DNA of 33,671 bases from IMG/VR virus record IMGVR_UViG_3300017739_000046. One strand, written 5' to 3'. The notes beneath the pieces were generated by a model, which was not told the origin of the DNA, ran no database searches, and saw only the letters and a program-made list of their open reading frames with translations. The stretch is from a virus. Of this stretch, positions 9,340-23,430 are shown piece after piece (position 1 is the stretch's first letter; every line of letters starts with the position of its first letter). Made by a program: the position numbers and the translations under genes.

Positions 9340-9367
9340 TTTACAATATCAATGTAATGTTTATTAT
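9340..9367 (+). promoter_or_regulatory. Candidate rightward early promoter
   Basis: TTTACA (9340-9345), a 16-nt spacer, then TATTAT (9362-9367). The predicted start, near 9374, falls in a TTACA-N9-TGTAA dyad. Confidence 0.4.
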
Positions 9368-9379
9368 CGTGGATTACAA
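9351..9379 (-). promoter_or_regulatory. Candidate leftward early promoter interleaved with the rightward one
   Basis: On the minus strand: TTGTAA (9379..9374), a 17-nt spacer, then TACATT (9356..9351). Its spacer contains the -10 element of the rightward promoter. Confidence 0.3.
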
Positions 9380-9402
9380 GTGTTAAATGTAACTTTTAGT
9401 AA

Positions 9403-9765
9403 TTGTACATGAAATATAGAGCAAAAAGAGTAGAACTAGATGGATATAAATTCGACAGCCAGGCTGAAGCCAAGCATTATTGGTTTACGTTAAAGCCTAT
9501 GCTGGAAAAAGGTGAGATAAGTCATTTTGAGGTCCATCCTAAGTTCGAAATAATAATAGATGGAGAAAAGATATGCAGATACATAGCCGATTTCAGCTAT
9601 TTCAAGCAGAAGGCACGGGTCGTGGAGGATGTCAAAGGGTTCAAGACACCAGTTTACAAGCTGAAGAAGAAGCTGGTAGAAGCCACACATCGGGGGGTGA
9701 AAATCTTGGAGATATTGCCGAAACAGTATCAGTCAAAAAAATACTCCTTGCCCTCTCAGACGTAA
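9403..9765 (+). CDS. DUF1064-family protein (putative PD-(D/E)XK-like nuclease)
   Basis: GYKFDSQAEAKHY...YIADFSY...VEDVKGFKTPVYKLKKKL matches the DUF1064 pattern as I recall it. An alternative start is ATG 9409. No Shine-Dalgarno is visible. Confidence 0.75.
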   Translation: MYMKYRAKRVELDGYKFDSQAEAKHYWFTLKPMLEKGEISHFEVHPKFEIIIDGEKICRYIADFSYFKQKARVVEDVKGFKTPVYKLKKKLVEATHRGVKILEILPKQYQSKKYSLPSQT

Positions 9766-10007
9766 CGGGTTGTCCACCATTGGAGTTGATTAATCATAGA
9801 AGGTCCAGGGAAGTTATGCCCTATCGTCATCTTCTTTATGCATTAGCCAAAGAATTAACCTGGCAGTCATTCCCACAACTAGGAAAGACATTGAACCGTG
9901 ACCACAGCACGGTCCTACATGGAGCTAAAAGAGGTCAGAAACTAATAGAAACGGACCCAAAGATAGGCGAGGTTTATGAGCAAGTAAAAAGAAAGTTGGT
10001 GGCGTGA
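9573..10007 (+). CDS. DnaA domain IV-like DNA-binding protein. The ORF is taken from ATG 9573; the true N-terminus is uncertain (see the frameshift finding).
   Basis: KKILLALSDVTG..ELINHRRSREVMPYRHLLYALAKELTWQSFPQLGKTLNRDHSTVLHGAKR aligns with E. coli DnaA [58 protein letters not shown]. Confidence 0.8.
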   Translation: MQIHSRFQLFQAEGTGRGGCQRVQDTSLQAEEEAGRSHTSGGENLGDIAETVSVKKILLALSDVTGCPPLELINHRRSREVMPYRHLLYALAKELTWQSFPQLGKTLNRDHSTVLHGAKRGQKLIETDPKIGEVYEQVKRKLVA

Positions 10008-12666: not shown

Positions 12667-13124
12667 GTAAGTTAGTTGCTATTCCAATAAATTTATCAGA
12701 AGCTAATAAGTTTGTAGATAACTTTCACAGGCATAATAAACCAGTAGTTGGTGCTAAATTTTCTATTGGTTGTTCTAACGGTGAAAGACTTGTTGGTGTT
12801 GCTATTGTAGGCAGACCGATTTCCATAAGAAAAGATGACGGTGTTACGGCTGAAGTTACTAGATGCTGTGTTATTGATGATGCACCTAAAGGCTCCTGTA
12901 GTTTTTTGTATGCTAGTTGTTGGAGAGCTTGGAAAGCTATGGGTGGTCAAAAAATAATTACCTATACCTTGCAATCAGAAGGTGGTGCGAGTTTAAGAGG
13001 GTCGGGCTGGACAGTTTTGCATGAAGTTGAAATTCATCCAAACAAAGGATGGACAAATAGACCTGGTAGAGAATGGCAATCAGTAAGTGGTCAACAAAAA
13101 TTTTGTTGGGGTGTAAGCGTATGA
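12663..13124 (+). CDS. XF1762-family protein (GNAT-like fold)
   Basis: LSEANKFVDNFHRHNKPVVGAKFSIG...LVGVAIVGRPIS....VTAEVTRCC........SFLYASCWRAWKAMGGQKIITYTLQSEGGASLRGSGW matches the XF1762-family pattern as I recall it. Confidence 0.65.
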   Translation: MSKLVAIPINLSEANKFVDNFHRHNKPVVGAKFSIGCSNGERLVGVAIVGRPISIRKDDGVTAEVTRCCVIDDAPKGSCSFLYASCWRAWKAMGGQKIITYTLQSEGGASLRGSGWTVLHEVEIHPNKGWTNRPGREWQSVSGQQKFCWGVSV

Positions 13125-14647
13125 CCGATGAAGTACCTTCTGGATTAAAGCTGGATTTTTCTGGCTCTCCTGTCGTAGCTAAGTTTTTAAGAAGTAACTC
13201 TTTTGTCCGAGGTATCATGGGTCCTGTCGGAAGTGGTAAGAGCTACGCCTGTTGTGCTGAAATATTTAGACGGGCCGTTATGCAAAAGCCCTCACCCCGT
13301 GATGGTATCAGATACAGCCGATTTGTTATCGTAAGAAACTCTTATCCTATGTTGAGGACCACGACCTTAAAAACCTGGATGGAGTTGTTGCCCGAACATA
13401 TTTGGGGCCATGTACGACACGCTCCACCGATTACCCATCATCTGAAACTTCCACCCAGGGGCGATGCTTCTGGTATTGATTGTGAGGTTATTTTTTTAGC
13501 CCTGGACCAGCCCAAAGATGTTAGGAAGTTGCTGTCATTAGAATTGACGGGAGCCTGGATAAACGAAGCGAGGGAGTTACCTAAAAGCATTGTCGATGGA
13601 TTAACCCACCGTGTCGGAAGATATCCAACCAAAGCTGATGGTGGTCCTTCCTGGCATGGAATTATTATGGATACGAACCCCTGTGATGATGACCATTATT
13701 GGTATCGTCTAGCAGAAAAAGAAACGCCCAAGGGAAAGTTTAAATGGGAGTTTTTTAATCAAGCTGGAGGTGTCCTGGAAGTAAAACCCGAAAACGTACC
13801 CGATGATATGCCCGAAGCTCAAGGATATATTTCCCAGGCTGGTCGATGGTGGAAGGTCAATGAGAAAGCTGAAAATATAAACAATCTGCCCGAAGGCTAT
13901 TATGTGCAGTTACTGGGTGGAAAGAACCTGGATTGGATCAGATGCTACGCTGAAGGCAAATACACCTATGTCCAGGAAGGCAGACCCGTCTGGTCCGAGT
14001 ATGATGACACCACAATGTCGGCTGACCTGGAGCCTATTCCGAATATTCCTATTAATATCGGCTTAGACTTTGGATTAACCCCAGCTGGTGTTTTTGCTCA
14101 GAAGTTGCCGAATGGTCGTTGGCATATACTGCATGAGGTTGTGACGTTTGATATCGGTCTTGAACGCTTTTGCTCTGTACTTAAAAGCGAATTAGAAATG
14201 AGGTTTCCTGGCTTTGAAGTCAATATGTGGGGCGATCCAGCTGGTATGCAAAGAGATCAGATATTCGAGACAACTGCCTTTGACCATCTTAAAACGCACG
14301 GGCTTTTAGCTAGACCGACTGCGACCAATGATTTTAGGACCAGGCGTGAAGCTGTGGCTATTCCTATGGGAAGATTAATAGACGGTAAACCTGGCTTTAT
14401 GGTCAATCGTAAATGCCAAAGATTAAGAAAAAGCCTGGCTGGTGGATATCATTTCAAGCGTGTTGCGATTGGTGCTGGACAGGAAAGATTTAAAGACAGC
14501 CCTAATAAAAATGAACACTCCCATGTGGGTGATGCTGTCGGCTACTGCCTTCTAGGTGGTGGTGAACATAAACGTATGACCGTCAGACCCCGTTCTGAAT
14601 ATGGCAACTCAACTGCGAAGGTCTTGGATTTTGATGTTTTCTCTTGA
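13121..14647 (+). CDS. terL: Terminase large subunit
   Basis: Walker A motif GPVGSGKS, Walker-B-like LTGAWINEA, and a C-terminal nuclease-like region (GLDFG...WGDPAG...HVGDA). ATG 13121 forms an ATGA overlap with the upstream stop. Confidence 0.85.
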   Translation: MTDEVPSGLKLDFSGSPVVAKFLRSNSFVRGIMGPVGSGKSYACCAEIFRRAVMQKPSPRDGIRYSRFVIVRNSYPMLRTTTLKTWMELLPEHIWGHVRHAPPITHHLKLPPRGDASGIDCEVIFLALDQPKDVRKLLSLELTGAWINEARELPKSIVDGLTHRVGRYPTKADGGPSWHGIIMDTNPCDDDHYWYRLAEKETPKGKFKWEFFNQAGGVLEVKPENVPDDMPEAQGYISQAGRWWKVNEKAENINNLPEGYYVQLLGGKNLDWIRCYAEGKYTYVQEGRPVWSEYDDTTMSADLEPIPNIPINIGLDFGLTPAGVFAQKLPNGRWHILHEVVTFDIGLERFCSVLKSELEMRFPGFEVNMWGDPAGMQRDQIFETTAFDHLKTHGLLARPTATNDFRTRREAVAIPMGRLIDGKPGFMVNRKCQRLRKSLAGGYHFKRVAIGAGQERFKDSPNKNEHSHVGDAVGYCLLGGGEHKRMTVRPRSEYGNSTAKVLDFDVFS

Positions 14648-15382: not shown

Positions 15383-15531
15383 TGGCTGAAGAAGAAGAAA
15401 AGAAAGAAGAAGAAAAGAAAGAAGAAGAAAAAGAACTTATTGTTTATGAGTTTGTCGAAAAAAAACCAGATAAAATTTGGCGTAGAAATCCTAAGTTTAC
15501 TAAGCCTGTCCATGAAGAAAAGAAAGAATGA
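15382..15531 (+). CDS. Candidate 49-aa (EEEKK)n peptide with a GTG start
   Basis: Hand-translated. The GTG overlaps the upstream TAG (TAGTG) and the stop overlaps the next ATG (ATGA). It contains a 48-nt all-purine tract. Confidence 0.35.
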   Translation: MAEEEEKKEEEKKEEEKELIVYEFVEKKPDKIWRRNPKFTKPVHEEKKE

Positions 15532-15812
15532 GAAAAGCACATAAAAATCCTACTGGTGGTTTATCTGAAGCTGGTCGTAAGCATTTCAATCGCACTACGG
15601 GCAGTAACTTAAAAAAACCAGTTTCTTCGGGAGATAATCCAAGACGGGCCAGTTTCCTCGCCAGAATGTCTGGTGTAAAAGGTCCAGATTATAAAGACGG
15701 TAAACCGACTAGAAAGTTATTAGCACTCCGTAAATGGGGAGCTAGTTCGTCAGCAGATGCCAAGAAAAAGGCAAACGCTATTTCTCAACGTAATAAAACA
15801 AGGAGTACTTAA
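15528..15812 (+). CDS. Hypothetical basic protein (94 aa)
   Basis: Intact ORF. KNPTGGLSEAGRKHFNRTTGSNLKKPV...RRASFLARM...KPTRKLLALRKWG resembles a small phage protein family that I cannot name with confidence. Confidence 0.65.
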   Translation: MRKAHKNPTGGLSEAGRKHFNRTTGSNLKKPVSSGDNPRRASFLARMSGVKGPDYKDGKPTRKLLALRKWGASSSADAKKKANAISQRNKTRST

Positions 15813-15943: not shown

Positions 15944-16095
15944 TGGCTAAACGACCTGGTTTATATGCCAACATACACGCTAAAAGAAAGCGTATAAAAG
16001 CTGGTAGTAAAGAGAAAATGAGAAAGCCTGGTAGTAAAGGCTCTCCAACTGCAAAAGCATTTAGAGATAGTGCTAAGACAGCAAAGAAAAGATAA
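15943..16095 (+). CDS. Hypothetical very basic peptide (50 aa)
   Basis: Hand-translated as MAKRPGLYANIHAKRKRIKAGSKEKMRKPGSKGSPTAKAFRDSAKTAKKR. 18 of 50 residues are K/R. TAATG overlaps at both ends. Confidence 0.5.
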   Translation: MAKRPGLYANIHAKRKRIKAGSKEKMRKPGSKGSPTAKAFRDSAKTAKKR

Positions 16096-17660
16096 TGGCT
16101 GAATTATCCCTTACCCAAATAAAGAAACGCTACAAACAAGCTGAAGCACATAAGGACCATTGGAGAGCTATCTACGAAGAAGCCTATGAGTTTGCTTTGC
16201 CTATGCGAAATATGTATGACGGGTATTATGAGGGAGATGTACCTGGTCAAAATAAAATGAAACGGGTATTTGATAGTACGGCTGTCCATTCTACGGCTAG
16301 GTTTGCTAACCGTTTGCAATCATCATTATTTCCACCACAAAGGGAATGGTGTCGATTATTACCTGGTGAAGATATACCAGCCGACAGAAAAATAGAAGCA
16401 CAACAAGCGTTAGATTTTTATTCAACTAAAATGTTTTCTATCATGCGACAATCTGGATTTGATTTAGCTATGGGCGAGTTTCTTTTAGATTTAGCTATTG
16501 GTACTTCTGTTATGCTTATCCAGCCTGGGGATACTGAAACCCCGATACGCTATGAAGCTATACCAAGTTATCAAGTTTGTTTTGAAGAAGGTCCTAATGG
16601 CAATGTTGACACGGTTTATCGTAAATTAAAAAAACCATTCAATATTATAGAGCGTGAATTTCCAGATGCTAAGATACCTGGCGAGTTAGCAAAAAAGTAT
16701 GAAGAGGACCCAACAGAAAAAGTTGAGTTATTAGAAGCGACTTATACCAATGACGGGTTTATTTACTATTGTATATCTACAATGGAAGAAGATTTTAAGT
16801 TAGTTACGAGAACTCTTAAAAGTTTTCCATTTATTGTTTCCAGGTACATGAAAGCCAGTAATGAACGCTACGGTAGAGGTCCAGTATTGTATGCTTTACC
16901 AGATATAAAGACATTGAACAAAGTTACCGAATTAACACTCAAAAATGCTTCATTGTCTATAGGGGGAGTTTTTACGGCTGTTGATGATGGTGTCCTTAAC
17001 CCCGAAACTGTCTCCATTGTACCTGGAGCCGTATTAAGCGTTTCATCAAATGGAGGCCCTAGAGGTCCAAGTTTACAGCCATTGCCAAGAAGTGGTGATC
17101 CTCAACTGTCACAAATTGTTTCATCTGACTTACGGGCAAATATTAAAAAGACTTTATTAGATGAAAGCCTACCACCCGATAACATGAGTGCCAGGTCAGC
17201 TACTGAAATTGTAGAACGAATGAAAGAATTATCACAAAATTTAGGGTCAGCTTTTGGTCGATTAATTACTGAAACCATGAACCCGATTGTACGAAGATCA
17301 TTAGAGCTAATGAATGAAATGGGCATGATAGATTTACCGTTAAAAATAAATGGTTTGGAAGTACAAGTATTGCCTACATCACCGTTGGCTATGGCTGGAA
17401 ATATGGACCGTGTAAATGATGTCATGTCGTTTATGCAGATATCTCAATCATTAGGTCCAGTTGGTCAGACATTAGTGAAACAAGATGCTGTTGGAGACTA
17501 CCTGGCTGATTTATTGTCGATACCAGCCAATTTAAGAACTACGCCACAGGAACGGGTGCAGATGCAACAGCAGATGATGGCTACGGCCCAGGCTATGGCA
17601 GAACAACAGGGAATGGATACATCGCAAATAGAGGAAGCAGTTAATGAGCCAAGCAGATAG
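16095..17660 (+). CDS. Portal (head-to-tail connector), T7 gp8-like
   Basis: Hand alignment to T7 gp8: ERYGRGPVLYALPDIKTLNK against ESYGRSYIEEYLGDLRSLEN, and ARSATEIVERMKELSQNLGSAFGRL against ERVTAEEIRYVASELEDTLGGVYSIL. Confidence 0.9.
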   Translation: MAELSLTQIKKRYKQAEAHKDHWRAIYEEAYEFALPMRNMYDGYYEGDVPGQNKMKRVFDSTAVHSTARFANRLQSSLFPPQREWCRLLPGEDIPADRKIEAQQALDFYSTKMFSIMRQSGFDLAMGEFLLDLAIGTSVMLIQPGDTETPIRYEAIPSYQVCFEEGPNGNVDTVYRKLKKPFNIIEREFPDAKIPGELAKKYEEDPTEKVELLEATYTNDGFIYYCISTMEEDFKLVTRTLKSFPFIVSRYMKASNERYGRGPVLYALPDIKTLNKVTELTLKNASLSIGGVFTAVDDGVLNPETVSIVPGAVLSVSSNGGPRGPSLQPLPRSGDPQLSQIVSSDLRANIKKTLLDESLPPDNMSARSATEIVERMKELSQNLGSAFGRLITETMNPIVRRSLELMNEMGMIDLPLKINGLEVQVLPTSPLAMAGNMDRVNDVMSFMQISQSLGPVGQTLVKQDAVGDYLADLLSIPANLRTTPQERVQMQQQMMATAQAMAEQQGMDTSQIEEAVNEPSR

Positions 17661-22902: not shown

Positions 22903-23430
22903 ATGGGATTAGAAACAATAGCACTTATTGGAGCATTTGCAAGTGGCGTAGCTGGATATAGGTCTAGCCAGGCACAGGCTGACCAGATGAAGGCTCAAGC
23001 TAAACAAGCCGAGATACAGGGTAGAGCAGATGCAGTAGAATATAAAAGGCAAAGTGTAGAAGTAATGCGAAGAATGAACGCTGTTATATCTGCTAACATT
23101 GCCAGGGCTGGAGCTAGAGGGCTAAACCCTTATGCAAGTGGTGGCGTAACAGAATTAATAAATAATTATAACCGAAGATATGCATTAAAGGATGTAATAG
23201 CATTAAGACAAAATGCGAAGATGGCTAAAGGAATGGCACAATACCAGGCTGGTCAATATAAAGCTTCAGCTAGTGCTATTATGAAAATTGCACCATTACA
23301 ATTTATAGCAACTGTCGGTACTGGTTATGCACAATATAAACAAATCGGTGGACCTAATAGTAGTCCAATGACGAAAACAAGTACGCCTGGTGTTACGACA
23401 GGAGTTCAACCATACGCTGGAGGGGTTTGA
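22903..23430 (+). CDS. Internal virion protein (gp14-like position; N-terminal TM)
   Basis: Hydrophobic N-terminus, then an Ala/Gln/Lys-rich helix. Synteny supports the call. Confidence 0.5.
   Translation: MGLETIALIGAFASGVAGYRSSQAQADQMKAQAKQAEIQGRADAVEYKRQSVEVMRRMNAVISANIARAGARGLNPYASGGVTELINNYNRRYALKDVIALRQNAKMAKGMAQYQAGQYKASASAIMKIAPLQFIATVGTGYAQYKQIGGPNSSPMTKTSTPGVTTGVQPYAGGV

Follow-up and report, generated by a model that had tools for sequence, protein, structure and literature searches.

Two proteins appear to be encoded in different reading frames of a 193-nt segment of a marine phage genome. The genome, referred to below as the window, is the whole stretch of 33,671 nucleotides that was analysed (IMG/VR record IMGVR_UViG_3300017739_000046) and represents a ~34-kb marine podovirus-like phage. 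A gene for a DUF1064 protein overlaps, out of frame, a gene for a protein resembling domain IV of bacterial DnaA. Comparison with related phages makes it very probable that ribosomes initiate independently within the DUF1064 gene, at position 9573, and so produce a DnaA-domain-IV-like protein of 16 kDa, of which the ~50 N-terminal residues are encoded over part of the nuclease gene. When two genes of a prokaryote or tailed phage overlap out of frame for a long distance, the overlap is usually put down to faulty annotation. The comparisons described here make the present case a well-supported new example of overprinting, not of recoding.

The DUF1064 gene extends from 9409 to 9765 on the plus strand (ATG at 9409, TAA at 9763-9765) and encodes 118 residues. 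Its frame is open over 9403-9765, from a TTG at 9403 onwards. The DnaA-domain-IV-like gene (plus strand, 9573-10007; ATG at 9573, TGA at 10005-10007) is situated in the -1 frame relative to DUF1064 and encodes 144 residues; this frame is open over 9543-10007. The dual-coding segment (plus strand, 9573-9765) thus specifies DUF1064 residues 55-118 when read in frame 0 and, when read in frame -1, residues 1-64 of the DnaA-like protein. Two same-strand ORFs are therefore open over a long distance in different frames, 193 nt in the window and 193-202 nt in its relatives, as is expected of overprinted genes. The junction at the 3' end of the 144-aa gene is an ordinary GTGA/TGATG overlap, which makes the 193-nt overlap exceptional within the operon.

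The ATG at 9573 is the sole ATG, GTG or TTG of the -1 frame that lies 5' of the DnaA-like domain. The next in-frame starts, TTG 9780, TTG 9786 and ATG 9816, are all within that domain. A Shine-Dalgarno (SD) core, GGAG (plus strand, 9562-9565), is positioned 7 nt before the ATG and is made of the DUF1064 Gly-Glu codons GGA-GAA, and no RNA structure is predicted around the ATG. The second frame is thus predicted to have an initiation signal of its own, GGAG-N7-ATG. The segment 9573-9722 (plus strand) encodes the overprinted N-terminal tail, residues 1-50 of the 144-aa protein, and the segment 9723-10004 (plus strand) encodes residues 51-144, the putative DnaA domain IV-like DNA-binding fold. A run of seven adenines (A7; plus strand, 9735-9741) encodes Lys-Lys in both frames (TCA AAA AAA and GTC AAA AAA ATA). 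In the DUF1064 frame it is phased TC[A AAA AAA] TAC, with seven sense codons remaining before the stop, and it is a potential, unconserved slippery site. The ATG, the GGAG and its 7-nt spacer, the length of the overlap and the phasing of the A7 run had been described in an earlier note on this DNA, and every position checks out. The same note's statement that ATG 9573 is the only canonical -1 start is also correct, there being no other until TTG 9780.

The DUF1064 product matches Pfam family PF06356 with a score of 72 bits against a cutoff of 24.7 (E=7e-20, residues 2-100) and PHROG 190, 'Holliday junction resolvase' (E=4e-30). Its AlphaFold model has a pLDDT of 90 and is folded to about residue 107. 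The half that is overlapped by the second gene is folded throughout, consisting of strands at 53-75, a helix at 81-93 and a strand at 98-102. The Foldseek neighbours of the model are the Bax1 nuclease, RecU and Hjc, which are PD-(D/E)XK nucleases. Residues D61, D74 and K76 are invariant across 35 DUF1064 homologues, as is V75 within D74-V75-K76; the DUF1064 proteins found in protein searches are 109-170 aa long. With its family match, D...(D/E)xK motif and restriction-endonuclease-like modelled fold, the product is a predicted PD-(D/E)XK-type nuclease-like protein. DUF1064 has previously been assigned to the PD-(D/E)XK superfamily (PMC1189080).

The 144-aa protein matches Pfam PF08299 (Bac_DnaA_C) over residues 55-119 with 50.8 bits, the gathering cutoff being 31.5. 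The match starts exactly at the two Lys codons of the A-run, in agreement with the earlier placing of A7 at the onset of the DnaA-like homology. The DnaA_C proteins found in the protein searches are 143-144 aa long, and homologues of 143-145 aa use the same start. In the AlphaFold2 model, residues 1-50 have a pLDDT of 36-43 and are disordered; this is the extension that had been called low-complexity on first inspection. Residues 51-144, with a pLDDT of 77-94, form six helices. Upon superposition by Foldseek onto domain IV of E. coli DnaA (1J1V_A), residues 51-144 gave a target-normalised TM score of 0.92 and an rmsd of 1.2 Å over 94 columns, which are all 94 residues of 1J1V. A phmmer comparison with the PDB entry 1j1v (E=1.5e-9) aligns the segments RRSR and RDHSTVLH, pairing R77 with R399, and D110/H111/S112/H116 with D433/H434/T435/H439. 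These residues of E. coli DnaA, and the segments aligned with RRSR and RDHSTVLH, are the ones that contact the DnaA box in 1J1V. Across the clades described below, R77, N108, R109, D110, H111 and T113 are invariant. By family match and modelled structure, residues 51-144 have the fold of DnaA domain IV, and the aligned contact residues predict binding to DnaA-box-like DNA. In the window, TTATCCACA-like DnaA boxes are not enriched (16 found, 12.6 expected). The protein is like bacterial DnaA domain IV in its fold and its aligned DnaA-box contact residues. However, bacterial DnaA also has domains I-III. The phage protein has neither the AAA+ ATPase nor the DnaB-loading domain and, because domains I-III are missing, cannot be a DnaA-type initiator.

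Related DNA was collected from metagenomes and IMG/VR, and 24 loci in six clades were examined. Clade 1 contains the window, L008, L012 and L013; clade 2, L004; clade 3, L001 and L014-L019; clade 4, L020-L030; clade 5, L026 and L029, with L055 having the same layout; and clade 6, L032. Identity to the window ranges from 99% down to 56% for DUF1064 and falls to 34% for the DnaA-like part. Nevertheless, all 24 loci have an ATG at the K-[I/V]-C site of DUF1064, formed by ATA-TGC or GTA-TGC, and in all 24 the -1 frame is open from this internal ATG into the DnaA-like domain, with an overlap of 193 or 202 nt. The DnaA-like proteins of the window's clade group are 144-156 aa long. In some clades the domain boundary carries a start codon as well (GTG in the L001 clade, TAATG in L020-L028), from which shorter isoforms may be produced.

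The open frame was evaluated by synonymous resampling, in which the DUF1064 protein was kept fixed and its codons were redrawn from each phage's own usage. For the window, the -1 frame was open in none of 20,000 draws (P<5e-5), and for the other lineages the probability was 0.0001-0.026 per lineage over the 64-67 shared codons. Between clades, 46-53% of the codons for identical amino acids differ, so that the codon choices are largely independent. The -1 frame has no stops in the overlap in any of the six clades, compared with 3-8 in the upstream half of DUF1064, and the +1 frame within the overlap has 4-8. Every lineage uses ATA or GTA for the Ile or Val whose codon contributes the A of the ATG, the expected frequency being 0.10-0.53 per lineage. 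An SD core precedes the internal ATG in 10 of 11 representative loci, covering five of the six clades, with a chance per lineage of 0.08-0.5 in the resampling. It is retained through co-varying codons (GGA-GAA, GGA-GTA, GGG-AGA and GGG-AGG). In the sixth clade, L032, only a purine-rich tract precedes the ATG, lacking an SD core. These comparisons strongly support the conclusion that selection keeps the -1 frame open, beyond what chance and the coding of DUF1064 would produce. Of the two unusual outcomes offered in the earlier note, the long overprinted overlap is borne out by the ATG and stop-free frame of all six clades and the SD core of five. Its caveat that the -1 frame may already be translated upstream of the A-run is likewise in agreement with the conserved ATG and stop-free frame found there. 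An open frame and start kept in six clades that are saturated at synonymous sites, with the SD core in five, make this an unusually clean comparative case.

A natural relocation of the start is seen in one lineage, L054. Because its Ile codon is ATC, L054 lacks the ATG; the -1 frame runs straight into two stops. Farther on it reopens, and a new AGGAAGGA-N8-ATG is situated 130 nt before the DUF1064 stop, the probability of an open frame being 0.013 over 43 codons. A further ATG lies 2 nt past the DUF1064 stop. Two loci served as controls. In L053 an unrelated gene comes after DUF1064, and the corresponding 64 codons contain 8 stops in the -1 frame. In L056, where DUF1064 has no DnaA_C neighbour, there is only one such stop; the resampled probability of an open frame, 0.023, is inside the range of the overlap-bearing lineages, so that L056 is a weaker control than L053. 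This result shows that an open frame is less improbable in less A+T-rich phages than in the window.

The peptide encoded by the overprinted segment appears to be under little constraint. The synonymous difference between clades is 0.53 outside the overlap and 0.46 inside it, with a bootstrap 95% confidence interval of the difference from -0.03 to 0.165. Synonymous-site variation in the DUF1064 frame thus reveals no significant amino-acid constraint on the tail beyond the avoidance of stops. The earlier note had proposed comparing codon conservation in both frames. The comparison confirms that the -1 frame is stop-free, but the lower synonymous variation in the overlap is not significant. The tail sequence is not conserved, and its net charge varies from -4 to +6 across lineages; an 'acidic autoinhibitory tail' was considered and dropped because of this range. 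Selection could be acting on the position of initiation and not on the tail peptide, which in the window includes FQLFQAEGTGR and VQDTSLQAEEEAGR. The shared DNA encodes a folded catalytic core and, in its second frame, a tail predicted to be disordered, which is the usual pattern of overprinted genes; their tendency to disorder has been reviewed (PMC8227390).

The A7 run offers another way of expressing the second frame. A programmed -1 frameshift, or transcriptional slippage, at A_AAA_AAA would give a selected DUF1064-DnaA-IV fusion of 199 aa (23 kDa), instead of or alongside the 144-aa protein, with the junction peptide SKKILLALSDVTGCPPLELINHR proposed in the earlier note. The heptamer (9735-9741) is correctly phased in frame 0 and is situated at the domain boundary, and since the two genes form a conserved pair, joining their domains physically would be functionally plausible. 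The motif A_AAA_AAA is a genuine slippery sequence that has been proven to cause frameshifting in one IS cluster, and transcription tends to slip on A7 runs (PMC4066793). However, the heptamer lacks conservation: the window, L008, L012 and L013 alone have it, and it is absent from the five other clades, all of which keep both genes (L004; L001/L014-19; L020-30; L026/29; L032) and have TCAAAGAAAT, TCAGAAAAGTGG, TCCGGGAAGTGG or GTCCGTGAAATT at this position. Relatives without the run that retain both genes were part of what the earlier note itself had named as evidence against recoding. Neither of the usual stimulatory elements was found, whether a structure downstream or an SD-like sequence ~10 nt upstream. 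The predicted fold of the 96 nt from 9735 to 9830 is no better than that of shuffled sequences (z = 0.21) as regards a stem-loop or pseudoknot 3' of the run, the first 24 nt after A7 being unpaired, and the Rfam search gave no match above noise. The nearest upstream SD-like sequence, GGAG at 9708-9711, is 23 nt away. In addition, the -1 frame is kept open over the 54 codons that precede the run and is equipped with a conserved SD and ATG of its own, which frameshifting would not need.

A natural fusion of the two domains was not found in either of two protein searches. The hypothetical fusion and the DnaA part were compared with 5.8 billion proteins, and the 236 proteins with E<=0.001 included no genuine two-domain protein. 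There was likewise none in the best 150 phmmer matches of the 199-aa fusion to 1.84 billion representative proteins. The only protein joining both frames, P0121, was rejected as an assembly artefact: its contig, a pilon-polished assembly of long reads, differs from its close relatives L017 and L018 by four indels within 650 nt. P0121 is a spurious 143-aa 'fusion' (L052, 1780-2440; ena:ERZ28548090, myrmidon_3 contig_34139_pilon) and serves as the representative of a 50%-identity cluster. The local conservation of the run is sufficiently explained by coding, as any substitution in it alters a Lys in one frame or the other. The plus strand of the window, which is 33.5% A, contains 13 runs of at least seven A. 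Three of these are phased as A_AAA_AAA inside ORFs, at 9735, 15611 and 16628, so that two occur in ordinary genes. The A7 run, unlike the long open -1 frame, is not beyond chance. At those two (15611-15617 in ORF 15528-15812, and 16628-16634 in ORF 16095-17660) the -1 frames close after 6-7 codons, and the runs look like ordinary Lys-Lys codons. The A7 run at 9735 is, on this evidence, best described as a by-product of Lys-Lys being encoded in both frames, not as a programmed recoding site, and the fusion is very unlikely to be a selected product. The recoding suggested earlier is thus not supported, given an unconserved heptamer, the absence of a stimulator, an independent -1 start and the lack of fused homologues. 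Spontaneous slippage at a low level may occur at A7 in the window's own sub-clade.

A shorter product would also be compatible with parts of the data. If the upstream part of the -1 ORF were untranslated, a protein of ~75-90 aa beginning at or past the DUF1064 stop could arise by termination-reinitiation, from a non-canonical start at about 9714-9741, or from TTG 9780 or 9786. Standalone phage DnaA_C proteins are short, 72-119 aa (L047, L051, Phage C72C1 and L054), gene callers chose short versions in L054 and L055, and the tail sequence is poorly conserved. However, a short product leaves unexplained the avoidance of stops over 64-67 codons, the conserved ATG, the mostly kept SD core and the shifted open frame of L054 with its new ATG. 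The window has no ATG, GTG or TTG between 9573 and 9780, and a protein begun at 9780 would lack helix 1 and some of helix 2 in a domain that, when complete, matches all 94 residues of 1J1V upon superposition. The short product alone is therefore improbable, if somewhat less so than the selected fusion. The remaining alternative is a sequencing or assembly error, the true genome having A8 and a single fused gene, or the overlap being otherwise erroneous. Homopolymers are error-prone, and P0121 is a database protein that joins both frames. Against this, the two-frame layout recurs in more than 25 independent contigs, which come from different samples and assemblers and differ in their junction sequences, and the contig of P0121 is the indel-bearing polished assembly described above. 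This explanation is effectively refuted already. Internal initiation at 9573 is also favoured by the structure of the product, since the DnaA-IV fold needs residues from about 51 onwards, which are encoded 5' of the DUF1064 stop, where there is no other start.

Independent initiation at 9573 would operate as follows. Two separate proteins would be made from one early or replication-module transcript. Some ribosomes would translate DUF1064 from 9409, while others would load independently at GGAG-N7-ATG, within DUF1064 codons 51-56, and read the -1 frame. Their product would be the 144-aa (16 kDa) protein, with a disordered tail of ~50 residues encoded over the folded catalytic half of the nuclease gene, followed by the domain of DnaA domain IV type. 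We infer this initiation, a joint action of the two proteins in phage DNA replication or recombination, and the evolutionary route that is suggested by the occurrence of the gene pair elsewhere.

The same two genes follow each other in distant phages. In the IMG/VR contig L047 (1941-2590), DUF1064 is followed by DnaA_C with a 4-nt ATGA-type junction. In Microcystis phage Mvi-Yong1342-1 (PP496355.1; L051, 1283-1944) the pair has a 4-nt overlap, or possibly a 40-nt one. These pairs resemble that of the window in their families, order and -1 frame relation, but have ATGA-type junctions and DnaA_C proteins of 72-119 aa, whereas the window's clade has overlaps of 193-202 nt and proteins of 144-156 aa. 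An ATGA junction puts the downstream gene into the -1 frame, so that the frame relation in the window is as expected if the start migrated upstream. The -1 relation probably goes back to an ancestor in which the same pair had a 4-nt ATGA stop/start overlap, and the start codon would then have moved ~190 nt upstream in the marine clade. The suggested route is thus an ATGA junction followed by upstream capture of a start codon. The recurrence of the pair points to a functional link between the nuclease and the DnaA-domain-IV protein, and this conserved, uncharacterised gene pair is a candidate replication or recombination module. A more specific proposal is that the two proteins form a unit, in which the tail docks the DnaA-box-type protein onto the PD-(D/E)XK nuclease. 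Together they would nick or resolve DNA in a site-directed manner and so start replication or recombination at DnaA-box-like sites, the phage being without its own polymerase, and occasional slippage at A7 would add the fusion as a third product in the window's sub-clade. This proposal is speculative and, as a whole, doubtful.

Overprinted same-strand overlapping genes are known in other phages, as in phiX174 A/B/K and D/E and in lambda Rz/Rz1. As in the window, one DNA segment is read in two frames, each with its own SD and start, and the newer frame is disordered or weakly constrained over an older folded protein. In contrast to those systems, overprinting in the window would be confined to the N-terminal tail of a domain protein that existed before; the overlap is partial and was probably formed by upstream migration of a start. 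Furthermore, the window is a ~34-kb tailed dsDNA marine phage, and what the second frame overlaps is the catalytic core of a predicted PD-(D/E)XK nuclease. A folded nuclease core can thus tolerate a second frame that encodes a disordered tail. The region also resembles known -1 frameshift sites (A_AAA_AAG in dnaX, A_AAA_AAA/G in IS1/IS3, and the G/GT site of phage tail chaperones) in having a phased A-rich heptamer near the end of the upstream ORF and a -1 ORF that continues. It differs from them in that the heptamer is unconserved, no stimulator is detectable, the -1 ORF has its own start far upstream, and no fused homologues were found.

The overlap appears to have been overlooked in annotation. 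On every related contig examined, the deposited gene calls for the region equivalent to 9409-10007 of the window contain only one of the two overlapping genes in complete form. DUF1064 alone is called in L001 and the 144-aa ORF alone in L004 and L008, and L055 has DUF1064 with a truncated 73-aa piece. The nuclease or the DnaA-like protein is consequently absent from the public annotations of an abundant marine phage group, a blind spot of gene callers.

The large terminase of the window (13073-14647) shares 69% identity with its counterpart in Methylophilales (OM43) phage MEP301 and 45% with the one in Pelagibacter phage EXVC031P, which places the window in a group of ~34-kb marine phages. MEP301 has been described as being without a DNA or RNA polymerase (PMC8024684). 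Its genome description lists a RusA resolvase where the window phage has DUF1064. MEP301 gave no match to the 144-aa query. Among deposited phages, blastn found no close relative and tblastn found distant DnaA_C matches only; a search of 185,579 genomes for a host or prophage gave no match. Upstream of the overlapping pair, genes for RecT, a YqaJ/RecE-like exonuclease and a serine recombinase are arranged divergently on the minus strand. Downstream, on the plus strand, are small unknown ORFs, followed by the small and large terminase.

Some minor features were also noted. The DUF1064 gene has no obvious SD at its own start. A sigma-70-like site, TTTACA-16-TATTAT (10/12), is situated upstream of it at 9340-9367; a scan of the window found no more sigma-70-like sites than in shuffled sequences. 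In L001, the intergenic region upstream of the DUF1064 gene contains masked bases (N) at ~2860-2960. Overlaps of 40-50 nt between consecutive plus-strand ORFs are present in the ORF list at 310-359, 13073-13124, 14601-14647 and 23390-23430, and these may merely result from the ORF finder's first-start rule. The divergent intergenic region of the window contains a 16-nt direct repeat (AATGTAATGTTTATTA / AATGTAACTTTTAGTA) at 9351-9401.
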